From a virus (Duplodnaviria > Heunggongvirae > Uroviricota > Caudoviricetes), in the IMG/VR virus record IMGVR_UViG_3300045988_180316: a DNA stretch of 37,769 nt, one strand, 5' to 3'. Positions 161 to 30,701 of this stretch are shown in pieces. Position numbers and translations under genes: made by a program. A model generated the notes under the pieces. That model saw nothing but the letters and a program-made list of their open reading frames with translations. It did not search any database and had not been told where the DNA came from. How positions within the stretch are numbered: position 1 is the stretch's first letter; the number at the start of each line of letters is the position of its first letter.

Positions 161-192
161 TTTGGTGGGGTCGGAAAAAAGTCGTACCTTTG
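161..192 (+). promoter_or_regulatory. Bacteroidota-type promoter (TTTG -33, TACCTTTG -7) in front of the tRNA
   Basis: TTTG at 161-164 and TACCTTTG at 185-192, 20 nt apart, about 30 nt upstream of the tRNA 5' end. Matches the Bacteroides TTTG-N19-21-TAnnTTTG consensus. Confidence 0.5.
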
Positions 193-6500: not shown

Positions 6501-7915
6501 GCAGGGATGAGTTTTTCTCCGAGTTCGATGGTGAGGTCTTGGAATCGCTTCTTGGCTTTGTCTAGTTCTGCCTGTACCGTTGTATTCTGGGTATTGAACT
6601 CATTGATGACACTGGTACCGTCGGCATACGACTTGGTGGCGATGTCTTGCGCCTCTTTCACTTGGTCGAGGTGTGTAGCCACGGCGGAGAGAACGCCCAC
6701 GGCACGGGTGCCGTTAAGCTGCATCTCCTCAAACATCGGTGCCATCTCGGCGAAACCACCCTTTGACTTCATGGCTTGCATGAACTTCATCAAGCCCTCG
6801 TTGGCGTTGGTCTTCATCAGGTTGGAGAACTCCTTGACCTGCATGCCCGCTATCTTGGCGAACTTGGCTGGCTCTTGGTACATCTTGGTGATGAGCTGTG
6901 AGAAGACGGTGGCGGAAGTCGCCTCCTCTTGCATATTTTGGTCGAGGGCAGAGGCGAGACCCATGAGCTGTGCCTGGGTCATGCCGGCCTGGATGCCGAC
7001 ACCTGAGAGGTCGGCAGTGAAATCGACGATGTAGCCAGCGTTGGCTGATGAGCTTTGTGCCAGCTCATTGACGGCGGAACCTGTGGCGAGCATCGCACCA
7101 CGAAGGCCTTTGGTCTTATCCTCACCAAACATCTGGGCGAGCTTGCCGATTTTATCGACCGCCCCCTTGCCGAGGTCATCGCCGAGGGCGACATTGATTT
7201 TGTCGGCACCATCAACGAACTCCTCGATCATCTCTTTGCTGGTGATGCCGAGGCGACCGGCAGAGCCAGCCAGCTCGTTGAGCTGCTCACGAGCCGTGCG
7301 GGTATCCATGCGCTTGAAGTCCTCGTTCATCTGATGAACTTGCTCATCGGTCTGACCTGTATATTTGCGCACGTCAGCCATCGACTCCTCCATGTCGGCG
7401 TAGGCTTGAGCTGCAGCTCTCAAAGTAAGAGTGAGTGTGGTGAGACTGCCCAGTATCTGGGTGAAGGCACCCCAGTTTTTGTTAAGACCATCCCACATTC
7501 TAGAGAACAAACTTCTGGAAGCTTTACCTTCGTCGTTGATGTGCTGCATCTCTGCTCGCACTTGCTTTAATTGCTTTTGCAGTTTTTTCCATTCGTCTGA
7601 GTTGCGCTTGATGGCACCGCTTTTCAACTCTCTGTTGAGAGCCTTGGCGACTAGTTGCAGCTCCTTGTATGATGCAGAAGAAAGATTGTTGAGAACTTGG
7701 TTAACCTTCTCTTGGCTAGTCATGTATGCTTTTGTCTCAGCCTTTAATCTCTTTATCTGTCGTTCGAGGGCTGTTGTTGACTCGCCCTTTGCATAAGCCT
7801 CGTCTCTGGCTTTTTGCACTTCTTTCAGCTTGTTTTGCAATTCGTTGAGTTTATCCTTAGCCTCTTTGGTGTCAAGAATAACTCTGCTAACATGGGTATC
7901 TGTATTTGTTGCCAT
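3569..7915 (-). CDS. Tail tape-measure protein
   Basis: 1448 aa. Long coiled-coil, Lys/Glu/Gln-rich repeats; a central hydrophobic segment (residues ~480-600) likely transmembrane; N-terminal core region of the kind seen in TP901-type tape-measure proteins (AGSAGRLGITSKEMIEEFVDGADKINVALGDD). Confidence 0.85.
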   Translation of the reverse strand: MATNTDTHVSRVILDTKEAKDKLNELQNKLKEVQKARDEAYAKGESTTALERQIKRLKAETKAYMTSQEKVNQVLNNLSSASYKELQLVAKALNRELKSGAIKRNSDEWKKLQKQLKQVRAEMQHINDEGKASRSLFSRMWDGLNKNWGAFTQILGSLTTLTLTLRAAAQAYADMEESMADVRKYTGQTDEQVHQMNEDFKRMDTRTAREQLNELAGSAGRLGITSKEMIEEFVDGADKINVALGDDLGKGAVDKIGKLAQMFGEDKTKGLRGAMLATGSAVNELAQSSSANAGYIVDFTADLSGVGIQAGMTQAQLMGLASALDQNMQEEATSATVFSQLITKMYQEPAKFAKIAGMQVKEFSNLMKTNANEGLMKFMQAMKSKGGFAEMAPMFEEMQLNGTRAVGVLSAVATHLDQVKEAQDIATKSYADGTSVINEFNTQNTTVQAELDKAKKRFQDLTIELGEKLIPAMKYGITSFSLTIKVMSTLITFTVTYAKQIAVLSTAIAVCTALWYKETIAIKIKTAAVQYASAVDKAYTATSTLLRAALVALQATWAYLTKGIQGYIVVMRAARLASLTNPWAALATVITVVGVAAYGAYKAITSYNEAMRNNTQEAKNNRAVAEAQASLAKKVSDATLDERNKVDMLNKVIHSNAYTVDERKQAIANMIKLVPEYHASISKEGKLYNDNQIAIQNYIKELENAAMAEAIYERKVEINKKKLELKQKESRIRYSLKAVDAERKAHPKQYESNAVADGWTGQLIEQNEALKSNEKQKQVHTQRLQANLSLQKQVNAEENFYNQQLEKNVNLQKQYNKTVKKNLLNNSATTETHTTPSSGHTMTEKERKAAEKEKKKREAAARKAEAKRKADMKKELDDAKKANQAEELDAKTLYATGQIRLAEYNEKMKNIKEQGLQDRLDILKKYGEAESEEYKRLNAEKENIAADYEKKQTADLEALETERQKKEMKLNADYYNKDSNLYHNEDAVNEALFLSYQDYLNKKQALYLSSSDEYAQIEKERELTQQQRKYDLQKQHDEQLLQLRQEYGKLGNEEQMQLELQGLEAIYKAGLIREEEYQRTKMGIANKYASYKPTADEQRKEDANTALDTAKKMTKGNGDNSNAMGSDNLATIAGGAIAAIQQQKMVNQNLQKLRDEDKISEQQYQDAKKQMNKETYQEIASIAGAAFSSINTMMGAASAYSQACSDLEVAKIEKNYDKQISAAGNNSAKKKRLEAKRDKEVAAAKSKANKKAMKIEIAQAIASTAMAAINAYSSAAAIPVVGHILGPIAAGLATAAGMLQIATIKKQHQAEAAGYYEGGFTGPGNYKKEAGVVHAGEFVANHNAVNNPQLLPALQLIDMAQRNNTVASLTAQDVSRAMGTGSAAVVAPVVNVSGGDTEQMGASLDSVHTTIDRLNEQLNAGIKSYVVITGPDGFDRQWSQYQKMKSNK

Positions 7916-10926: not shown

Positions 10927-12570
10927 TCACGTGAATTTATAGAACTTCTTTTTGAACTTATTGTGAAGCTCTGCGACCACGGTGGAGAAGGGTAGCTCGT
11001 CACGACAGAAGTCGTTGAGGGCTTGGTCTATCAAGATCTTGGAGCCTGTATAGAGGTAGTGCTCCTGAGGCTGCCATACCTCGGTGCCGTCTGGCTCCAG
11101 GTGGTCGATGATGCGATAGCGAAGGGAGAGGCGCTTCTTGGGTACCTCTTTGGTGACCATGTGGGTGGAGCCGTCCGGGGCGGTCTCCTCTTGCTGGATG
11201 GTCTCCTTCTCTATCACCGAGTCATCGACCTTGTAGTCTATCACTTGGACGAGGAACTTGTTCTCGTCCTGACCCTCACGGCAGATGATGTCCTCGATGG
11301 ACTGCTGCTGTGATTTCTCCATACCGTCAAAAGGCACGCGCGCACGGCGAGCCTTGACGAGTTTACCGAATCTTTCCATACCGATTTTCTTATATAAGTG
11401 TTTTGAGTTTGCGTGGATGCCCAGTCCTAGGCGAGAGGCTGCCTTGATCTGTATCTGACGGTCTGTGAAGCCCGCCTTGCGTAAGTTGGCAATCTGTTTG
11501 CAGAGGTCGTGCTTGAACCGCTTGCGCAGCAGGGCGTGGTCAGCGTAGATGATCTGACCGCAGAAGTCGATGCCATCGCAGGTGCGGTGGATACCCCAAG
11601 ACTTATTGATGGATAGGTGCCAGTCACGGGCGAGGTGCATCACGGCAAGCTCTGCCATCAGCCTGAGGAACACCTTATCCTCGTGGAGGATGTAGATGTT
11701 GTCCATGAAGCGGTAATAATGGCGAAGACCTTGGCGGCAGAAGCGCTCGAACCTATCGTTGAGCGACTTCACCCCCCCACATAGCAGCTGAGCTTGCTGC
11801 TGAGTGCGACAGGTAACGAGCATGTCGCTCACGTAGCGAGCCTGCCAGTAACGGAACTTGTCGGTGTCTTGGAGAATGTCGAAGCATCGGAGTGCCAGGT
11901 AATCGAAGCGGGCGAGGAAGAGCTGACCCAAGAGTTGGGCGAGCTTGACGCCGAGCACGATGCCTGGATTGAAGCTATCGACCACCTCGTCGATGAAGGC
12001 GAGGAGCTTGCGGTCTTTGATCTTGCGGCGATATTCACTTTTGAGAAGAGCGTGGTCTATGCTCTGAAAATAATGGTGAATATCCATGGGCAAGCAGTAG
12101 AAGGTATCTTGCTGTGGCGAGTTGAAGATGTCTCGCTTGACAAGATTATAGAAATAATGGGTGCCCTTGCCCTTGGAACCAGCCGGACTGTGGCTGTAGA
12201 GTGTCTTGCGAAGGTTATCCTCTACAGGTTGCAGGGCAGCGTGCTGGATGACGTGGTCGATAACGGGCAGCTTGTTGACTTGGCGATGTTTTGGATAGTC
12301 GATATCTTTGGCGACATAGGCTGAGGTATGCCAAGTTTGTTGGGTGTAAGCATCGAGCATGCGTCCGATGTTATGGTCTAGGTTTGCCTCGAATTTTTGG
12401 ACCGCACGGCGAGACATCTTTTGTCGGGCGTAGTCATAGAATGCCCGACGAAAGTTGTCTAGTGTCTCGACCTGTGGCGATATGTTGCCAAACCTTTTCA
12501 TAAGCGGTGTAATGTCTGTGTTGAACGGTGTATAAACTGTGTATAGTCTGAATCGTCTGCTTTTGTACAC
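10927..12570 (-). CDS. DGR-type reverse transcriptase with non-canonical catalytic motif
   Basis: RT motifs in the translation: SPAGSKGKGTHY (compare bRT RPDKGTH), FYCLPMDIHHYFQSIDHALL (motif 3), GIVLGVKLAQLLGQLF (motif 4, the DGR-typical G-x-x-x-S/A-Q) and RFMDN-IYILHEDKVF where Y-x-D-D is expected. Start may be 12570 or 12501. Lies downstream of the template repeat. Confidence 0.8.
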   Translation of the reverse strand: MYKSRRFRLYTVYTPFNTDITPLMKRFGNISPQVETLDNFRRAFYDYARQKMSRRAVQKFEANLDHNIGRMLDAYTQQTWHTSAYVAKDIDYPKHRQVNKLPVIDHVIQHAALQPVEDNLRKTLYSHSPAGSKGKGTHYFYNLVKRDIFNSPQQDTFYCLPMDIHHYFQSIDHALLKSEYRRKIKDRKLLAFIDEVVDSFNPGIVLGVKLAQLLGQLFLARFDYLALRCFDILQDTDKFRYWQARYVSDMLVTCRTQQQAQLLCGGVKSLNDRFERFCRQGLRHYYRFMDNIYILHEDKVFLRLMAELAVMHLARDWHLSINKSWGIHRTCDGIDFCGQIIYADHALLRKRFKHDLCKQIANLRKAGFTDRQIQIKAASRLGLGIHANSKHLYKKIGMERFGKLVKARRARVPFDGMEKSQQQSIEDIICREGQDENKFLVQVIDYKVDDSVIEKETIQQEETAPDGSTHMVTKEVPKKRLSLRYRIIDHLEPDGTEVWQPQEHYLYTGSKILIDQALNDFCRDELPFSTVVAELHNKFKKKFYKFT

Positions 12571-12709
12571 TTGATAACCTTCGACCGGATGACCGTGTTG
12601 TCATCATCTACCAGCTGTCTTATTGATGTGTATGTATCGCCATGGGGCGAGGATTGACCCTGTAATCTCGAAGTGGGAGCAAACGACCCACGAAGAGATA
12701 TGTCTGTAA

Positions 12710-12831
12710 GTTGAGGGCGGCGCCGTAGTTCACATTGGCATTCGAGACAGCATTGTTCACGTTGAGCGTCGAAAGACCGCATTGACCACCATTGTTAGCG
12801 TTAGCACCACGAAGGCAGACACGAAAACCGG
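12710..12831 (-). repeat. DGR template repeat (TR)
   Basis: ~122 bp, near-identical to the target-gene 3' end at 13121-13242. In gene sense it is full of AAC/AAT (Asn) codons. By eye there are 15 mismatches to the variable repeat, 14 of them at TR adenines (sense strand). Confidence 0.8.
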
Positions 12832-12863
12832 CACCTAGGGTCACACCCTGATATCATAACCGC

Positions 12864-12871
12864 CGCAAAGG
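12864..12871 (-). promoter_or_regulatory. -7 promoter element TACCTTTG (minus sense) just upstream of the template repeat
   Basis: Plus-strand caaaggta at 12864-12871, about 33 nt upstream of the TR start in minus sense. Could drive the TR-RT transcript. Confidence 0.35.
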
Positions 12872-13023
12872 TAATAAAAATAATCGGTATGGAAGCATGT
12901 CAAAGAGCTTTTTTGATGTTTTTATTGATATTTTTTTTGTCGCCGACCGCCACAGGCGGTAACTTAAGGCGAGCTACGCTCGCTGGGTGCTTCGGCTTCG
13001 CCGAGGGTGCTCAGGTCTCTTTT

Positions 13024-13061
13024 GCACACCCAGTAAACCGATGCACACCCAGCAAACTGAT
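13024..13061. repeat. Tandem 19-bp direct repeat just downstream of the DGR target gene
   Basis: gcacacccagtaaaccgat (13024-13042) then gcacacccagcaaactgat (13043-13061), 2 mismatches. Lies between the variable and template repeats together with palindromes at 12946-12960 and 12969-12983. Confidence 0.5.
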
Positions 13062-13069
13062 GTAGTCTT

Positions 13070-14542
13070 TTAGGCCGCCTCGTAATACACGGGTTCCACT
13101 GACCACTCGGATGCTGCTTCGCAGAGGGCGGCGCCGCAGTACACATAGGCAAGCGAGACAGCATCGCTCACGTCGCGCGTCGAAAGACCGCATTGACCAC
13201 CAACGTAAGCGCTAGCACCACGAAGGCAGACACGAAAACCGGATGTAGCGCCGCTATTATTCCAGAAATAGCTAGTCCAATAGGTTGACTCGGATGCGCC
13301 CGTGGCGGTCGGGAAGTTCTCCAGATGCTCCATCGAGAGCGTCTTGATAAAGCCTTCGCCCTTGGTCGGCGAGGTGCTGTAAGCCACCATGCCATCGGCG
13401 GAACCTATCGTCCACGTGCCGTAGATGGACGGTGCCACGAGATGGGTCACGGAAGTGTCTTCGTTGCATCGCACCTGCTCGTCATCCATGTGTCGCCACA
13501 ACGAGCCGAAGCCATTTTTGTAGCCGAAGAAGGATGGTATCTTGGCGGTATAGACCACGGTGCCATCGTCTTTTTTGACCTCGTAGCTTGCCTCGCCACA
13601 AGCGTCGCCCAGCTCGATGCCGGCAGACATCGGCACGACAGGGCGATAGCCGTTGTAACCACCCCAATCAGGCATCTGTGTCACGCCAGCTCCGAGACCA
13701 CCCTGGTAGAGACCGTTGGCATCTTTTTGGCTGTTGACGGCATCCTGGTCGTAGTGGGTGCCGAAGATGACCCCGAAGAGCACGGCGATGGCAGAGGTGT
13801 GGCGCATGGTGGTGCAGAGCCAGCCTGTGCCGTTTTTGCGGGCAGCGGCACGCCAGTATTCGGTAGTCTGGTTGGTGGCAGCCTTGCCCAGCATGGTGCG
13901 GTTGGTGTTATCTAACGTTGAGTCGTTGTTGCCGCCTCGGTAGTCTGTGCCCTCGTTGATGTAACTCACCAGCTTGCCTGTGCTGCGCTCTAGCGTGGCG
14001 AAGCCAGCGGCGGAGATGCTGCCAACAGGTATCTTGTAGTTGTACTCGCCTGGTATCGGCGTAGGGCTGACCATCTCGTAATGGAGTCTGCCCACGGTCT
14101 TGATGACCATGTACCACTCCTTGCCCCAGCCCCACTGGTAGTGCCCCTCTGAGCCGTCGAGCTTGGCTGTCTCGCCGGTGGCATACTTGTAATGGTCTTT
14201 GGAGTCGAGCTTGCGACGGGAGTGGTCATTCTTGACTAGGTAGCAGCCCAGACCCAGCTCCGCTGGTAGGGTCTGCAGTAACTCCAGCGAGCCCACATAA
14301 GTGGCGGCCTTAGGGGTTGCATTGTCGAGGTTCCACACTCGACCACACCAAGGATGCTGTCCCATCTGGACGGCGCTTTTGAGCGACATCTGCTCAGACC
14401 TGCCAGACTTTTTGTCGAAGACCTCGACAATCTTGTCTGTGGCGCTCATGTCTGACTGTGGGAGGTCGTCAACCTGTTGACCTCCATCGAAAGCGGCTAT
14501 GATAGCCTTGAGCTTACTCTCTTCTTCTGATGTTAATGCCAT
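13070..14542 (-). CDS. DGR target protein, putative receptor-binding / tail fibre protein with C-terminal variable region
   Basis: ~490 aa. The C-terminal ...GFRVCLRGASAYVGGQCGLSTRDVSDAVSLAYVYCGAAL... is the variable counterpart of the template repeat. Start moved to MALTSEEE (14542) to remove overlap with the upstream gene. Last gene of the tail-fibre operon. Confidence 0.8.
   Translation of the reverse strand: MALTSEEESKLKAIIAAFDGGQQVDDLPQSDMSATDKIVEVFDKKSGRSEQMSLKSAVQMGQHPWCGRVWNLDNATPKAATYVGSLELLQTLPAELGLGCYLVKNDHSRRKLDSKDHYKYATGETAKLDGSEGHYQWGWGKEWYMVIKTVGRLHYEMVSPTPIPGEYNYKIPVGSISAAGFATLERSTGKLVSYINEGTDYRGGNNDSTLDNTNRTMLGKAATNQTTEYWRAAARKNGTGWLCTTMRHTSAIAVLFGVIFGTHYDQDAVNSQKDANGLYQGGLGAGVTQMPDWGGYNGYRPVVPMSAGIELGDACGEASYEVKKDDGTVVYTAKIPSFFGYKNGFGSLWRHMDDEQVRCNEDTSVTHLVAPSIYGTWTIGSADGMVAYSTSPTKGEGFIKTLSMEHLENFPTATGASESTYWTSYFWNNSGATSGFRVCLRGASAYVGGQCGLSTRDVSDAVSLAYVYCGAALCEAASEWSVEPVYYEAA
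13121..13242 (-). repeat. DGR variable repeat (VR) inside the target gene
   Basis: Aligns to the template repeat with an offset of 411 bp. 10 of the 12 differing codons are Asn in the TR. A GC-rich CGGCGCCGCCCTC sits at the 3' end of both repeats (IMH-like). Confidence 0.8.
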
Positions 14543-14564
14543 AATAAAAAATGTATTTAATCGA

Positions 14565-15329
14565 TTAAACAATGCGTAATTTATCACCAACTTTTCTAAG
14601 CTTGCTCGATGCCGACAGGCGAAGGCGAGGCTGGCGTACGGTGATGCTGACCTCTTGCCAGAGCGGTGTGTTGGCGGTGGGGATGACCCAGAACTTGGTG
14701 ATGCCCTCGCCCTTGATGGTGAGGTTGCCGCTTGGGTCTGCCACGAGCGAGTCACCCTCGGCTCGCTGGAAGAGCACGCTCTGTGGGAGGTAGCTCGGCA
14801 GGATCTGCACGGCGATGCGCTGAGCCACCTTGTTGCGCAGGCTTATCTCGGGGAGATAGGCCAGGTTCATGCGAGCTGGCGCGATGAAGCCTGTGGCTAT
14901 CTGAGCGGCGAGACCATCCATCTGCGCTATCTTGGCATCGGCTCGCTTGGATGCCGCGTCTGCCTCTGCAGCCTTGGTCTCTGCCAAGGCTGCCTGTGAT
15001 GCTGCCGCCTCGCCCTGCTCGCCAGCCGCCTTGGCTGCGCTCTGGGCGAGGTTAGCCGCCTTGTTGGCATCGTCGGCCGCACCCTGCGCTCTGACGGTCG
15101 GTGTCTTGTCGAGCCACAAGCGCCACTTGGCGTTGGTATCTGAAGGAGTCGTCGTGTTGCCATCCTCTAGGGAGGCGAAGACTCCTGACGATGTGTGAAC
15201 GATGTCGCCCTCGTCGTAGCCCTTGACGGTCTGGCCATCCTCATCTTGATAGGAGTAGCCCGACTGCCAGGTGCCCTGGTCGGTGAAGGCGACATTGCCC
15301 ACGACAATGATGTTTGTGTTATCTGCCAT
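14565..15329 (-). CDS. Hypothetical tail-fibre-operon protein with Ala-rich coiled coil
   Basis: 254 aa; central Ala/Gln/Glu-rich helical segment; tightly spaced in the operon 13070-20281. Confidence 0.45.
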   Translation of the reverse strand: MADNTNIIVVGNVAFTDQGTWQSGYSYQDEDGQTVKGYDEGDIVHTSSGVFASLEDGNTTTPSDTNAKWRLWLDKTPTVRAQGAADDANKAANLAQSAAKAAGEQGEAAASQAALAETKAAEADAASKRADAKIAQMDGLAAQIATGFIAPARMNLAYLPEISLRNKVAQRIAVQILPSYLPQSVLFQRAEGDSLVADPSGNLTIKGEGITKFWVIPTANTPLWQEVSITVRQPRLRLSASSKLRKVGDKLRIV

Positions 15330-26660: not shown

Positions 26661-26664
26661 ATTG

Positions 26665-26931
26665 CATCATCTGTTAAGCATTAGCAGCCAACTTGATTTC
26701 GTGAGAAAAGGGTGGCGGCTGCATTCCCCGTTGCTTAACAGATGATGACTTATCCGAGAGGACTAATCAAAAATCTACGGTTCATGCAGCCGCCATATTG
26801 GTACACCTTTTTCCCGTTGCCGGGAAAATGATACTCTTGGGCATAAAAAAAGCCTGCGGCTGAGAAGCCATAGGCGAAACGGTCGCCCTGCCGGATAGAT
26901 TACTATCATCTGTTAAGCGTTGGCAAAGGTA
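26665..26931 (-). promoter_or_regulatory. Structured leader / operator region with three copies of a 14-16 nt element, plus promoter
   Basis: catcatctgttaagca at 26665-26680, its exact reverse complement at 26732-26747, and a direct copy atcatctgttaagcg at 26905-26919. A second inverted pair ggcggctgcat (26714-26724) / atgcagccgcc (26784-94) interleaves with the first. -7 motif TACCTTTG at 26924-26931 with a TTTG 20 nt upstream. Confidence 0.5.
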
Positions 26932-26948
26932 AGAAGAAAATCCGGAAC

Positions 26949-26985
26949 CGCCAAAAAAAAAGCGAGAAATTTTCATTCCTCGCTC
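26949..26985 (-). terminator. Rho-independent terminator (minus strand) after the secreted-protein gene
   Basis: Minus sense reads gagcgag-gaatgaaaattt-ctcgct followed by nine T. Confidence 0.45.
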
Positions 26986-27017: not shown

Positions 27018-27416
27018 TTATTGCTCATCTTTGGTAATTAACCCTGCTCGAATCTCATCATCGTTCTTCACTCTCTTCACCAGAACATAGTGGAGAACAG
27101 CCCTGCCGGCACCCTCTGTTATATAATATGTCTTGTCAAGTTTCCAACCTTTCTTAGCCATATAATTCACGGCTGCCATGACGGTATTGAACTTGATCTG
27201 TTTGCCATCCTCACCATATAAGCTCTCGAAAGAACCTCCACCATTGGAGACTGCACCCATATCAAGCATGACCTTCACTTTGCCGACGCCCCAAAAGTTA
27301 TATGCCTTGAGGTCGCAATAAACCGGATACTTACCATCCTCAGACTGGATGGTGCTCTGCGCTCTAGCGCCAATAGCCATAAAAATGATGGCCATCATAA
27401 CTAAAAACCTTTTCAT
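27018..27416 (-). CDS. Secreted hypothetical protein (signal peptide)
   Basis: 132 aa. N-terminus MKRFLVMMAIIFMAIGARAQ is a typical signal peptide. Lower GC than the phage core. Own promoter motif TATTTTTG at 27444-27451. Confidence 0.55.
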   Translation of the reverse strand: MKRFLVMMAIIFMAIGARAQSTIQSEDGKYPVYCDLKAYNFWGVGKVKVMLDMGAVSNGGGSFESLYGEDGKQIKFNTVMAAVNYMAKKGWKLDKTYYITEGAGRAVLHYVLVKRVKNDDEIRAGLITKDEQ

Positions 27417-27542
27417 TTTTTAATGTTTAAATTTAAATCGATACAAAAATAACAATAAAATATTAGTTATTCTAACCATTTTATCTGTATTTATATAAAA
27501 TCTGCTGGAAATATGTTGTAGAGCATAAAAACGAGGGACTTT

Positions 27543-27581
27543 GGGAAGAAAAAAGCCCCGATGCATCACGCACCGGGGCTT
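27543..27581 (-). terminator. Rho-independent terminator (minus strand) after hicB
   Basis: 8-bp stem aagccccg (27553-27560) with cggggctt (27574-27581), followed in minus sense by TTTTTTCTTCCC. Confidence 0.45.
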
Positions 27582-27647
27582 CTAAAGCGATCTTTTAATT
27601 TTTAATTGCATGAAGTACAATCGGCATGAAGCCGATCGAACTGTTCT

Positions 27648-28073
27648 TTAAACATACTGTAGAACTGGTCTATCTATCAAGAGTCCAGTATCTATATCTC
27701 CTTTAACTTTTGCTATACCTTGTCTAATTTTCTCCAAGCTTTTGCCTTGTGGTACCTTGATGCCTGCTGCATATTGTCGAAGCAACGAGGCGTTCATGCC
27801 GATATACTTGGCGAAGGCTGAGATACTTAGAGGATAGTAGTTGAAAAATGCCCCAACATCGAAGACGAAGTGAAACTCCAAGTCTGGGTACTCCTTACCT
27901 TCCTCCTCATAGAATTCTCTCATTTCCTTATCTGCAATGAGGAAATCTTCCATAGCAGCCTTTGCGGTCTTGCCGTCACCAATAAGGCCAAACGTCAAGT
28001 CATCAGTCCCAGTCATGAAGCAAGAATATAAATCCTTGCCAGACTCCACTACAACAGTAACTTTTCTTGCCAT
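27648..28073 (-). CDS. hicB: HicB-family antitoxin with C-terminal HTH domain
   Basis: 141 aa. N-terminal ~90 aa has the HicB-like pattern (KVTVVVESGKDLYSCF...GDGKTAKAAMEDF). C-terminal segment YPLSISAFAKYIGMNASLLRQYAAGIKVP is HTH-like. Downstream of hicA. Confidence 0.6.
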   Translation of the reverse strand: MARKVTVVVESGKDLYSCFMTGTDDLTFGLIGDGKTAKAAMEDFLIADKEMREFYEEEGKEYPDLEFHFVFDVGAFFNYYPLSISAFAKYIGMNASLLRQYAAGIKVPQGKSLEKIRQGIAKVKGDIDTGLLIDRPVLQYV

Positions 28074-28149
28074 ATCTTTCTATATATAAAGTTCATAATC
28101 AAAAGTGTCCTTCTTGCATACCAAGAAAATCATGGAAGAAGAACCTGGG

Positions 28150-28332
28150 CTAAAGCCCAAGTTCTTGATAGATAGATTTCAGAGTGCGAATATTCACCTC
28201 TTCAGTTCCATGCCGAGGAACGGCAGTGCTCTTCCCATTGGCTGGGTTGAACCAAATGTCGTGTCGGCCTCCATGACGAAGTAGAAAGCATCCCGCTTTC
28301 TTTAACTTCCGATACAGTTCACTGTATTTCAT
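28150..28332 (-). CDS. hicA: HicA-family toxin (mRNA interferase)
   Basis: 60 aa from MKYSELYRKLKKAGCFLLRHGGRHDIWFNPANGKSTAVPRHGTEEV..., the HicA pattern. Start moved from the ORF-track 28407 to 28332 because a TACCTTTG -7 motif lies at 28377-28384 inside the longer ORF. Confidence 0.65.
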   Translation of the reverse strand: MKYSELYRKLKKAGCFLLRHGGRHDIWFNPANGKSTAVPRHGTEEVNIRTLKSIYQELGL

Positions 28333-28376
28333 AATCTCAGTATGTTTAAAGAACACTTTGTCCTTATTGGACGATG

Positions 28377-28384
28377 CAAAGGTA
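28377..28384 (-). promoter_or_regulatory. -7 promoter element TACCTTTG (minus sense) for hicAB
   Basis: Plus-strand gatgcaaaggta; 45 nt upstream of the hicA ATG at 28332. Confidence 0.4.
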
Positions 28385-28520
28385 ACAATAAAGTTATAAA
28401 TAACCAAATATTTCGGTAACTATTTTGTTATATTACCTAAGATTTAACATTTATACATAAAGATAAGCGATGTCCCTACCTCTTTTAGGCTCTTGCCAGA
28501 CCGCTTTCGCCGCTAGGCGA

Positions 28521-28560
28521 AAAATTTTCAGAAAAATAGGGAAGGTCGAAAAACCTTCCC
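28521..28560 (-). terminator. Rho-independent terminator (minus strand) after radC
   Basis: Perfect 8-bp stem gggaaggt (28539-28546) with accttccc (28553-28560), loop cgaaaa, followed in minus sense by TATTTTTCTGAAAATTTTT. Confidence 0.5.
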
Positions 28561-28576
28561 TTGTACCTATTATATA

Positions 28577-29263
28577 TTATAGCTTTCCCTTGTCGTGGTA
28601 GCTGTAGAAGCCATCCTCGGCTAAGATGATGTGGTCCATCAAGAAGAGTCTCATCACCTCGCACGCCTTGGCTATCTTCTGCGTGAGCATATCGTCCGCC
28701 TTGCTCGGCTGCGTGCTGTTCGATGGGTGGTTGTGCGCCACGGCGATGATGGTTGCGTTGTTGAGCACGGCTTCTTTCATTATCAGCCTTATGTCCACCG
28801 CTGTGTCGGTGATGCCTCCCTCGCTGAGCTTCACACTCTTTATCAGTCTGAAGTTTTGGTTCATCAGCACTACCCAAAAGCCCTCTGTCTCATTGCTTCC
28901 CATCATCGGGCGAAGATAGTTGTAGAGTGCTAGGCTGCTGCCTAGGTCGGTATTACGTGCCACCTTTTCCATTTGGTAGCGTCTGCCTAGCTCGATGGCT
29001 GCCTGTAGGGCTATCGCCTTGCAGTCGCCGATGCCTGGTACCACCTCTAGGTCTTCGATTCTCGCCTTGCCGATATTGCGAAGTGAGTTGTCCATGATGT
29101 TATAAATCTGTCGTGCCTGCTCTTGGCTGTCCTTGGTACCTGCCCCTCTGTTGATTACCAAAGAAATCAAGTCAACGTTGGTTAGGGTGTCGAAGCCTTG
29201 GTTATAGGCTCTGTACTGCGGTCTCTCCTCCATACAAAGGTCGTTATAATTTTGTCGTATCAT
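28577..29263 (-). CDS. radC: RadC-like JAB-domain protein
   Basis: 228 aa with the JAB/MPN metal-binding motif HNHPSNSTQPSKAD and the helix-hairpin-helix-like N-terminus typical of RadC (UPF0758). Confidence 0.75.
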   Translation of the reverse strand: MIRQNYNDLCMEERPQYRAYNQGFDTLTNVDLISLVINRGAGTKDSQEQARQIYNIMDNSLRNIGKARIEDLEVVPGIGDCKAIALQAAIELGRRYQMEKVARNTDLGSSLALYNYLRPMMGSNETEGFWVVLMNQNFRLIKSVKLSEGGITDTAVDIRLIMKEAVLNNATIIAVAHNHPSNSTQPSKADDMLTQKIAKACEVMRLFLMDHIILAEDGFYSYHDKGKL

Positions 29264-29279
29264 AGCTATATTGTTTTAA

Positions 29280-29804
29280 TTAGTTATACATTCTCTTGGT
29301 TCTCGCTAGGAACATCGCTCCCATCACTTGTGCGCCACATTCTGCTAGCTCGTTGGCGAACTCTCGGGCGGTCGCACCGCTTGTCACCACATCGTCGAAG
29401 ATGATGACTTTCTTTCCGTTGAAATACTCTCTATCGAGTGCCACTCTGTAGTCGAAGCTCTCGCACACTCTGTCGGCGCTGAAGTGCTTTGCCGTGCGCT
29501 CGCCATAGATGGAAATGTGCTCGCTTCCGTTCTGTACCTTTGCGCCTTGGCTCACCTTTTGGGCGAAGCGAGAAAAGCGCTTGTTGTACTTCTTGGAGTT
29601 GGCTGCTGGTGCGCATACCATCACGAAGTCGCTGGCTTTGTCGCCATAGGTGTTGACGAAAGAGCTGACCACCATATCGGCTGCGGCGTCTGTCGCCCAC
29701 TGCTTGCCATCCTTGAAAGCAAAGATGAAGTTTCTCACTTGCTCGGCTTGCGCTGAGCGGTCGAAACGCTTGGAGTTGTACTCGTAATAATTGAAAGTTT
29801 TCAT
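29280..29804 (-). CDS. ComF-like phosphoribosyltransferase-domain protein, no N-terminal zinc finger
   Basis: 174 aa with the PRPP-binding motif VIIFDDVVTSGATA. Start is 16 nt upstream of radC, so probably co-transcribed. Family called from motif only. Confidence 0.55.
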   Translation of the reverse strand: MKTFNYYEYNSKRFDRSAQAEQVRNFIFAFKDGKQWATDAAADMVVSSFVNTYGDKASDFVMVCAPAANSKKYNKRFSRFAQKVSQGAKVQNGSEHISIYGERTAKHFSADRVCESFDYRVALDREYFNGKKVIIFDDVVTSGATAREFANELAECGAQVMGAMFLARTKRMYN

Positions 29805-30701
29805 ACGCTCAAAATTTTTATTCTAGCCAGAGGGAGGAAGGAGCTTTTTGTTTGAACTCGTCTTTGCCTGCCCGTCTGAGAGTTTTTTTTATTCTGTCCG
29901 TCGGTCGTTTTTGTCGCTTTTTACGGTGCGATGCAGACGAGCGGAGAAGAGGTATGAAAGCCAAGGAATTTTGCAAAAAGTTTATGGAAAACCGCCATCT
30001 CTGATTGCGGAAGGCTGCCGAAAAGTTTTTGGAAAATAGATTTATCGGTACTTGGTGCATACCATCCGCCGTACCTTTGCACCCGAAAAAGAGATAATGA
30101 CCGATGGATAACCGATAAAGGGAAAAGCTCTCGGACAGGAAAAGCGGGCAAAGAAAAGGCTCTGCCTTACCTTGGTGGTTAAGCCTTAGCGACGTTTGAG
30201 CGCCATCACGGTCACCACCGCTTGAAAATTCGCAAATTTTAACCCTAGCGTATGAAATGAAAGATGGAAAATTTGCGTCATCAAAAACACCATGTTTTTC
30301 AGACTTCAGGAGGAAAAACATACCTTGGAGCGATGAAATCGCAGCATTTGGCAGGCTTCGACCCCGAGGTTGAAGATGCCAAATGTGTCGTTTTACGACA
30401 GGTTTTCCACACCCACGGATTGGAAAACCCCGATTTTATCGTGGTTTTAGGGATTCAAAGGGAAAATAATTCCCCTTTGTCGGCGATAGCACCCCCCACC
30501 GCCCTACGCCCGAGGGCGCCTTCCGCCCCCTTGGAAAAGACGGAATATGTAAAAGACCGTTAACGTTTTTGTAGGAATGTAAAAAGCCAAAAGGCACGAA
30601 AAAAGGGAACACGCTTCGCAGCGCACTCCCCTTATCGGCGGTCAAGCAAGAATGCCAGCCACCTAACTTATATAAGAATCGTACTATCTAAAGAAATCAA
30701 A
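29805..30701. other. ~900 bp apparently non-coding region with repeats, hairpins and a plus-strand promoter-like motif
   Basis: No convincing protein-like ORF. Repeated TGGAAAA(C/A) near 29985, 30031, 30265, 30421 and 30529; 9-bp inverted repeat ggttttcca / tggaaaacc at ~30401-30429; TACCTTTG on the plus strand at 30072-30079. Confidence 0.4.

Follow-up and report, generated by a model that had tools for sequence, protein, structure and literature searches.

A conserved hairpin with Bacteroidota-type promoter-like elements ahead of a phosphoribosyltransferase-RadC gene pair in Prevotella/Segatella-type temperate phages

Frpo forms a stem-loop a few hundred nucleotides (nt) long. In plasmid leading regions, ssb and anti-defence genes have single-stranded DNA (ssDNA) promoters of this type ahead of them (PMC11541004). 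The Frpo literature that we searched deals with sigma-70-type promoters of Proteobacteria and makes no mention of Bacteroidota, RadC, phosphoribosyltransferases (PRTases) or YpsA; our literature search found no paper on ssDNA promoters in Bacteroidota. Here we describe a long, covarying hairpin with promoter-like elements in one arm, which lies ahead of a PRTase gene and a radC gene in a virus sequence of 37,769 nt (IMG/VR record IMGVR_UViG_3300045988_180316; the whole of this stretch is called the window below). The window represents a Prevotella/Segatella-type temperate phage, probably as a prophage.

The proteins encoded behind the hairpin also have described relatives. ShosT is a toxin that depends on phosphoribosyl pyrophosphate (PRPP); its DD motif is essential, and its antitoxin is the DprA-like ShosA (PMC11961720, PMC12961424). 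The double replacement D331A/D332A abolishes ShosT toxicity, and in E. coli ShosT a pyrophosphatase domain is fused N-terminally to the PRTase (PMC11961720). Iyer et al. (2017; PMC5512222) set the PRTases of invasive elements apart as a group related to ComFC and proposed a role for them at DNA entry; for RadC, a hydrolase of the JAB fold, they proposed a role in processing nucleic acids or nucleotides. RadC-DUF3085 pairs occur on plasmids (PMC12826799).

The HicAB and RadC families are ordinary, and the PRTase group is known in outline. Neither PADLOC nor the literature searched holds a named system that pairs RadC with a PRTase, as a preliminary description of this DNA had already said. In that literature we came upon no earlier account of the strict PRTase-RadC pairing, of the exchange of RadC for a SLOG protein, or of a hairpin with Bacteroidota promoter elements that is common to phages and plasmids.

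The phosphoribosyltransferase-RadC pair

The preliminary description had treated positions 27018-29804 as one cargo island of unrelated genes, each with its own signals. The open reading frames (ORFs), domains, promoter boxes, terminators and AT-rich composition that it listed are all found where it put them, and every ORF of the block is on the minus strand. Its coordinates hold for the contents, although one promoter and one terminator fall just outside the range. The block is, however, two layers and not one cargo island: a fixed PRTase-RadC cassette and a variable slot for morons. The genes of the cassette and the terminator that ends them are as follows.

29280-29804, minus strand: PRTase, 174 amino acids (aa), type I (PF00156, 29.2 bits against a cut-off of 26.3)
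28577-29263, minus strand: RadC (PF04002, 9e-36, 122.9 bits; PF20582, UPF0758_N, 45.9 bits)
28538-28561, minus strand: terminator ending the PRTase-RadC unit, from the terminator scan

The two genes are 16 nt apart with no signals between them and are probably co-transcribed, as had been suggested. RadC follows the PRTase within ~15-100 nt in 89 of 89 related loci (80 of them further viral loci that we added), at PRTase identities of 42-97% and identities of the terminase large subunit (TerL) of 28-100%. It also follows the PRTase in all 51 loci found through a DNA motif of the upstream element, a route that we took because no stretch of the PRTase protein is conserved enough for a pattern scan. 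Eight loci with an 83%-identical PRTase have the order TerL, gap, PRTase, RadC, HicA; in one locus with a 53%-identical PRTase, TerL, gap, PRTase and RadC lead directly to the next conserved phage gene.

The composition of the pair is near that of the core. GC content is 0.52 in the PRTase gene (0.68 at third codon positions, GC3) and 0.51 in radC (GC3 0.69), against 0.51 for the whole window and 0.56 for TerL (GC3 0.81). Because the pair is conserved at its position in 89 of 89 loci and has near-core GC, it is not recent cargo, contrary to what had been supposed. Constancy of position in related phages together with core-like composition, which the preliminary description had named as grounds against its own view, is found for this pair. 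Nor does the pair have signals of the usual kind: the window motif scan finds no ordinary bipartite promoter between TerL and the PRTase, and a conserved hairpin element lies there instead. The gene identities, their linkage, their conservation and the variability of what lies behind them are solid observations.

The PRTase belongs to a large family. An exhaustive profile search returned 716 cluster representatives with full-length matches at E<1e-10; many are ~170-230 aa long, and in many others the PRTase is the C-terminal domain of a 500-1000-aa protein. The PRPP loop has an intact DD motif (VIIFDDVVTSGAT), with D137 invariant and D138 nearly invariant. The best curated match is to ComF (TIGR00201) over the whole PRTase domain (residues 21-168), at 32.5 bits, far below the cut-off of 233.55. 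This match begins at model position 43, and residues 1-60 hold no cysteine cluster, so the N-terminal zinc finger is absent. An AlphaFold2 (AF2) model (pLDDT 91.6) has the type I PRTase fold, with its best TM-score, 0.55, to Helicobacter pylori ComFC and with PyrR among the fold matches. Profile and fold comparison thus bear out the preliminary label of a zinc-finger-less, ComF-like protein.

Comparison with the ComFC-related group of invasive elements (PMC5512222) gives both likenesses and differences. The best curated match and the best fold match point to ComFC, the PRTase stands as a solo domain in phages and plasmids, and an invariant arginine (R76) follows strand 2. Unlike ComFC, the protein lacks the N-terminal four-cysteine zinc finger and a ComFA partner, and in its family the N-terminal half has conserved residues of its own (Y9, F30-K31-D-G).

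Two side observations concern the wider family. In P0031, P0056, P0060, P0061 and P0077 the PRTase domain is at the C-terminus of 500-1000-aa proteins, twice in P0031; the N-terminal parts of these five proteins match no Pfam family. Two other members, P0233 and P0216 (Phocaeicola vulgatus, Prevotellaceae), are named 'ribonucleotide-diphosphate reductase subunit alpha' by NCBI and look mis-annotated.

RadC-like JAB proteins are familiar from the cryptic prophages of E. coli, where they include YeeS, YkfG and YfjY. The protein encoded here is a full-length RadC, with an N-terminal UPF0758/helix-hairpin-helix domain and a JAB domain, and clears the TIGR00608 cut-off (149.9 against 133.85). Read from the translation, its JAMM motif is intact (E...HNH-x7-SKAD: KEAV ... 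AHNHPSNSTQPSKADD). It thus resembles the RadC-like JAB proteins that stand amid entry, anti-restriction and toxin-antitoxin (TA) genes of mobile elements. It differs from those of the RadC-DUF3085 kind in having a PRTase as partner, one upstream element shared by both genes, and no DUF3085 or antirestriction neighbour.

The upstream hairpin in phages and plasmids

The preliminary description overlooked a non-coding stretch of 897 nt (29805-30701) upstream of the PRTase. This gap between TerL and PRTase contains no credible gene and recurs in the relatives, where near-identical blocks persist even at only ~50% PRTase identity. Profile searches divide it into part A, near TerL, and part B, ~330 nt adjoining the PRTase, which nearly every locus has. 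Part B can be aligned with its reverse complement and so forms a long hairpin.

30599-30631, minus strand: terminator after the TerL gene, at the start of part A (GC stem, T-run and a tight predicted hairpin)
29897-30108, plus strand (fold of the template strand): long imperfect hairpin of ~210 nt within part B
30051-30079, plus strand: -33-like CTTG (30051-30054) and -7 box TACCTTTG (30072-30079), in the 3' arm of the template-strand hairpin

The hairpin is maintained by compensatory change. On 19 distinct phage versions compensatory changes support 20 of the 44 pairs of the sense consensus, and 95.4% of cells are paired, against 35-48% when partners are slid. Over the sense and antisense alignments there are 19-20 compensatory pairs and 91-95% paired cells (slid controls, 35-57%), values reached by 0 of 500 shuffles. 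The z-score of the DNA fold is -3.8 for the window hairpin and -6.75 for a plasmid copy.

The template (antisense) strand forms the more stable fold in 22 of 22 versions, by a mean of 14.9 kcal/mol with RNA parameters and 8.3 kcal/mol with DNA parameters. Mean z is -3.9/-4.1 for the template strand and -3.0/-2.9 for the sense strand; in the window hairpin the difference is wider (RNA parameters, -8.4 against -1.1). Counts of G-U against A-C were dropped as a strand test, as either strand has ~65 wobble cells, and fold energies were used instead.

All related phage groups but one have the hairpin upstream of the PRTase; the exception, the L061 group, keeps only short matching blocks. A DNA motif taken from the 3' part of the hairpin occurs at 79 places in the genome and viral collections, in Prevotella, Segatella copri and Leyella genomes and in IMG/VR viral contigs. 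In all 51 with enough flank a PRTase lies 65-94 nt downstream, then RadC. The upstream regions of two loci (L169, L173) gave no profile match; both may be divergent copies, and in L169 a comparable motif comes with a hairpin that is only weakly predicted (z=-1.06). Copies were searched with nhmmer profiles, the element being too large for practical calibration of a covariance model. Rfam scans of the window and the plasmid loci, at gathering and at permissive thresholds, returned no family match in the hairpin.

Three candidate explanations for this stretch were rejected. An ORF over the hairpin (29818-30321, 167 aa) is broken by an 83-column gap in relatives and is skipped by gene callers. 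A pac or cos site, or a terminase-linked origin, does not fit an element that stays with the PRTase when genes separate it from TerL and that also occurs in plasmids. A retron-like RNA was suggested by a PADLOC PRTase_III-A match; the match (E=2.5e-4) covers the PRPP loop only, and the reverse transcriptase of the window belongs to a diversity-generating retroelement (DGR) 17 kb away.

Part A is a separate element, since in the L061 group it lies downstream of RadC (7295-7523) and not upstream of the PRTase. In the window (~30370-30600, minus strand) it is strongly structured, with z=-4.55 for the folded stretch 30191-30701, and its blocks include TACATATTCCG and GGGCGTAGGGCGGTGGGGGGT (30491-30511). 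A 23-nt stretch overlapping GGGCGTAGGGCGGTGGGGGGT is 100% identical in phages with a 53%-identical TerL.

The sequence in the 3' arm of the hairpin reads as a promoter of the Bacteroidota -33/-7 type, and transcription from it would leave the hairpin base toward the PRTase. Of 158 distinct copies, 153 have the pattern [C/T]TTG-N16-19-TAnnTTnG, placed on the arm and in the direction that a promoter for the downstream gene requires; the -7 box is TAnnTTTG in 86, TAnnTTCG in 65 and TAnnTTAG in two. In predicted ssDNA folds averaged over 20 versions the -33 is paired. The mean predicted probability of being unpaired is 0.9, 0.93 and 0.78 for bases 2-4 of the -7 box and 0.05 and 0.02 for its end bases. 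The arm opposite the -7 box is not conserved in the alignment. A duplex -33 with a pre-opened -7 is what a mimic of an open complex should look like, and Frpo-type single-stranded promoters are portrayed in this way (PMC11541004), reportedly also by Masai and Arai in 1997. The covarying hairpin, its motif and the placement of that motif are solid observations, as are the plasmid homologues described below.

The element can be compared point by point with the Frpo/ssi elements of F and ColIb-P9 (PMC11541004). Both are long imperfect hairpins (~210 nt in the phage), both have promoter elements in the stem that face the downstream gene, with the melting-region element in mismatches (a prediction here), and both occur as repeated, co-oriented copies upstream of ssb and other entry genes. 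They differ in that the elements here are of the Bacteroidota -33/-7 and not the -35/-10 type, with no sequence similarity to be expected, and in that the hairpin is also fixed in tailed temperate phages.

PRTases at 30-38% identity, ~190 aa long, occur in Bacteroidota plasmids and mobilisable elements, where SSB, ParA, Mob_Pre, resolvase and AbiEii genes are their neighbours. After the PRTase comes YpsA, of the SLOG superfamily, and not RadC, an architecture like that of ShosTA. The part-B hairpin lies upstream of one plasmid PRTase-YpsA pair (E=3e-23) and of a solo PRTase (E=3e-15). A search of PLSDB gave a single plasmid match, the Segatella copri DSM 18205 plasmid (NZ_CP085933), and a search of an annotated phage collection gave only two unannotated records with partial similarity. 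The S. copri plasmid has strong hairpin copies before radC and before a hypothetical gene. Both of its ssb genes also have hairpins ahead of them, weaker ones that share the motif, and they belong to a run of like-oriented genes that includes a ParA-like ATPase and a HipA TA pair. Plasmid copies are generally co-oriented and lie amid ssb, parA, radC, TA and mob genes. The preliminary description had offered a role in DNA entry as speculation; homologous cassettes beside ssb in Prevotellaceae plasmids, behind the same hairpin, strengthen it.

A scan of metagenomes with the hairpin motif gave 75 copies, often two or more per element. About 32 stand ahead of a PRTase (with YpsA or RadC); further copies are found before radC by itself or before genes for a 191-aa family, an 82-aa membrane protein or a 115-aa protein, always ~130 nt from the ATG. 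Several contigs have at least two copies, always co-oriented and 2-10 kb apart.

In six metagenome loci (L183, L185, L214, L220, L243, L249) the cassettes of one element are near-identical over a stretch that begins at ~-330 and stops no more than ~15 nt short of the ATG, and the genes that follow are unrelated. From such sequences the promoter and 5' untranslated region appear to be copied as one unit within elements. We also observe that a 'hypothetical protein' annotated at 149727-149918 of NZ_CP085933.1 lies wholly inside the hairpin copy upstream of radC and is probably no gene.

The variable slot and the phage setting

Behind the cassette lies the part of the block that behaves as cargo. 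Its features, with the signals that bound it, are these.

28377-28408, minus strand: promoter for hicAB, TTTG-N20-TACCTTTG, from the promoter motif scan
28150-28332, minus strand: HicA toxin, 60 aa (PF07927, 1.1e-12, 48.2 bits against a cut-off of 27; PHROG match)
27648-28073, minus strand: candidate HicB-like antitoxin, 141 aa, with an N-terminal alpha/beta domain and a C-terminal helix-turn-helix
27549-27580, minus strand: terminator after hicAB, recognised by eye (7-bp GC stem and T-run)
27444-27451, minus strand: -7 box TATTTTTG before the secreted-protein gene
27018-27416, minus strand: secreted protein, 132 aa, family unassigned, with an N-terminal signal peptide (MKRFLVMMAIIFMAIGARA/QS) read from the sequence
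26960-26985, minus strand: terminator closing the cargo block, from the terminator scan
26924-26955, minus strand: promoter TTTG-N20-TACCTTTG, which would restart transcription into downstream, presumably structural, genes

The three promoter motifs and three terminators reported earlier are all present. Each -7 box reads TAnnTTTG, and the full TTTG-N20-TAnnTTTG occurs in two cases (26924-26955 and 28377-28408); ahead of the box at 27444-27451 the -33 TTTG is absent. The full motif occurs 6 times in the window, where chance alone would give 0.51. The scan returned two of the terminators (28538-28561 and 26960-26985). The third (27549-27580) is convincing by eye and was missed because its 13-nt loop exceeds the scan rules.

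The hicAB and secreted-protein segment is more AT-rich than the phage core, as had been noted: GC is 0.40 over 27018-28560 (GC3 0.44-0.51) against 0.51 for the whole window. Its content also varies among relatives, as the cargo view anticipated. Some of these phages have hicAB and the secreted-protein gene, some lack them, and in some the cargo lies on the opposite side of the PRTase. Where hicA and the HicB-like gene occur, they are placed either downstream or in the gap that separates TerL from the PRTase; the secreted protein is limited to a subset of the closest relatives. On account of this variable presence and position we regard hicAB and the secreted-protein gene as morons in a variable slot. 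They would be two independently acquired, AT-rich, self-promoted and self-terminated morons behind the cassette.

The toxin half of the proposed HicA/HicB pair is secure by PF07927, and the antitoxin half was assigned mainly by hicA-hicB gene order, as the 141-aa protein matches no Pfam or NCBIfam family. Its AF2 model (pLDDT 94) has E. coli HicB3 and E. coli HicB as its top two PDB matches, at a weak E of 0.06-0.07, and one homologue carries the NCBI name HicB. A HicA above the Pfam cut-off, the order hicA then hicB, a promoter and terminator of its own, AT-richness and moron-like variability all resemble a HicAB type II TA system; a partner that matches no HicB profile and only weakly resembles the HicB fold does not. 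Since the -7 box lies inside the TTG-started ORF, the HicA start is most likely the ATG at 28332. The mechanical call of an 85-aa ORF from TTG, whose extension (28333-28407) includes its own promoter box, is probably wrong.

Below the block, the 260-nt leader from the promoter at 26924-26955 to the next ORF (26661-26923, minus strand) contains GCTTAACAGATGAT twice (26905-26918 and 26666-26679), the reverse complement of GCTTAACAGATGAT between both copies (~26735-26750), and a terminator-like hairpin (26857-26870). By sequence it looks like the alternative pairings of an attenuator ahead of the downstream genes.

Elsewhere the window has the features of a tailed temperate phage, with nearly all genes on the minus strand. 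A tape-measure-like protein, a ClpP-like prohead protease and a weak terminase large-subunit match are also encoded.

161-192, plus strand: full Bacteroidota promoter motif, just upstream of the tRNA
224-296: tRNA, near the left window end
416-1579: integrase
10927-12570, minus strand: reverse transcriptase of the DGR (PHROG, 1.4e-54)
12553-12654, minus strand: Rfam RT-17 RNA, within the DGR
12713-12831, minus strand: DGR template repeat
13124-13242, minus strand: DGR variable repeat, at the 3' end of ORF 13070-14755

The promoter ahead of the tRNA is consistent with the left window end being host DNA at a prophage junction. The DGR is complete (10927-14755, minus strand); its repeats have 13 differences, 12 of which fall at adenines of the template repeat.

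Readings of the cassette

We read the cassette as a hairpin ssDNA promoter followed by PRTase and RadC as entry or establishment factors, with separate morons behind, and we believe and doubt this reading in about equal measure. The first layer, of hairpin, ComF/ShosT-like PRTase and RadC, is fixed downstream of the terminase gene in a Prevotella/Segatella temperate phage lineage and is homologous to the Prevotellaceae plasmid cassettes near ssb, parA, TA and mob genes. It would be a cassette of the conjugative-element entry type, and its hairpin would be a promoter of the Frpo/ssi kind adapted to a Bacteroidota sigma factor. The template strand, once single, would fold back on itself; the stem would rebuild a duplex -33, and the -7 element (TAnnTTTG) would be offered on the non-template arm within a pre-opened bubble. 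The polymerase would read the 5' arm as template, exit at the hairpin base and continue into PRTase-RadC, with a predicted start opposite ~29915-29930 and an RNA beginning near GCACCGUAAAAAG.

The two proteins may then act early, in establishment or counter-defence, on nucleotide or on incoming DNA, with RadC in the place that a SLOG protein (YpsA, DprA-like) takes in the plasmid versions and in ShosTA. In the phage the ssDNA state could arise in rolling-circle or recombination-dependent replication, and this is the weakest step of the argument. That transcription depends on ssDNA, that PRTase and RadC have such a biochemical role, and when a double-stranded DNA (dsDNA) phage would expose the strand, we propose from the sequences with moderate confidence.

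Several points weigh against this reading. It is not obvious that a tailed dsDNA phage must pass through a single-stranded stage on entry. Covariation is symmetric, the antisense alignment giving equal support, and z is significant on both strands. The -33 is CTTG and not TTTG, the spacer of 16-19 nt is slightly shorter than the 20 nt of the ordinary promoters of the window, and TAnnTTCG replaces the consensus TTTG form in 65 of the 153 copies. Placement of the plasmid copies in a 'leading region' is something that we infer from gene content alone. Finally, the toxin-profile matches of the PRTase in PADLOC, to ShosT (3.9e-10, residues 30-171) and PsyrT (2.6e-8), fit a defence or TA function as well as an anti-defence one.

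Those matches are the starting point for an alternative that we judge unlikely, though it is the main rival as regards the proteins: a Shosta-like TA or abortive-infection pair that serves the host, in which PRPP consumption by the PRTase would poison nucleotide metabolism and RadC would stand in for the DprA-like antitoxin. The DD motif needed for ShosT toxicity (PMC11961720) is intact, linkage of the two genes is strict, and the adjoining slot holds another TA pair, hicAB. As in ShosTA and PsyrTA/RqlHI, the unit has two genes, the first with a PRPP-binding PRTase domain and DD motif, and its plasmid relatives pair the PRTase with the SLOG protein YpsA as ShosT is paired with ShosA. However, the protein here is a PRTase only, lacking both the N-terminal pyrophosphatase domain of E. 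coli ShosT and the RecQ-like helicase domain of PsyrT. Against crystallised ShosT just the PRPP loop aligns (residues 130-168, E=0.0026), no better than with APRT or OPRT. The phage partner is RadC, a JAB protein, and not a SLOG protein, and no upstream hairpin is described for those systems. In plasmids, RadC alone stands behind its own hairpin and the PRTase occurs with neither RadC nor YpsA, which argues that the pair is not obligatory, and the module lies among entry genes of the ssb type.

We give little weight to a further alternative, the main rival as regards the hairpin, in which it acts as RNA, either a sense 5' leader or a non-coding RNA that controls PRTase-RadC through PyrR-like binding or as an RNA antitoxin. 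RNA would be the more natural medium for a dsDNA phage. The sense fold is well supported by its compensatory pairs and scores below shuffles (mean z about -3). No terminator separates hairpin and ATG, so read-through transcripts would include the hairpin, and proteins of the PRTase fold can bind RNA (the PyrR fold match; PMC5512222). Yet the antisense strand is the more stable in every version, and hairpins precede unrelated plasmid genes (ssb, radC, membrane proteins), which speaks against an RNA that partners the PRTase specifically. The -33/-7 promoter of the other strand falls on the invariant blocks, conservation in the bubble is one-sided, no promoter was found upstream of the hairpin, and Rfam gave no match.

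The view of 27018-29804 as a single island, gained recently and made up of accessory genes with no relation to one another, is hardly tenable: its position between the terminase gene and the downstream genes is a known moron hot spot, and several promoters and terminators and an AT-rich 27018-28560 speak for it, but PRTase-RadC and the upstream element are kept in place across phages whose TerL proteins are 28-57% identical, at a GC equal to the window mean, and only hicAB and the secreted protein behave as cargo. That the PRTase is an ordinary nucleotide-salvage enzyme, an auxiliary metabolic gene product, we all but dismiss: it has the type I fold and PRPP loop, but the Apt, Hpt and PyrE models match only ~40 residues of that loop (16-25 bits against cut-offs of 107-200), and its full-length family is distinct and tied to mobile elements.

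Returning to the hairpin as an ssDNA promoter, we offer a broader proposal tentatively, and with more doubt than belief. Bacteroidota mobile elements may have their own Frpo-like class, a hairpin of ~200-300 nt, and a phage lineage may have fixed one to switch on a PRTase-RadC pair for entry and counter-defence, with RadC replacing the SLOG partner. If true, ssDNA-gated transcription would be used outside Proteobacteria and outside conjugation. Frpo searches built on proteobacterial sequences and sigma-70 boxes are blind to such elements in this dominant gut phylum.

For annotation, the practical gain is that the conserved part of this phage region can be told apart from swappable morons. The function of RadC has long been unclear, and its exchange for a SLOG protein beside a ShosT-like PRTase offers a concrete way to test it. 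Should the hairpin prove to be an ssDNA promoter, it would be a marker, searchable by sequence, of early-entry genes in Bacteroidota plasmids, integrative and conjugative elements and phages, and the genes behind it (PRTase-YpsA, PRTase-RadC, RadC, ssb and small unknown proteins) would be candidates for entry functions.

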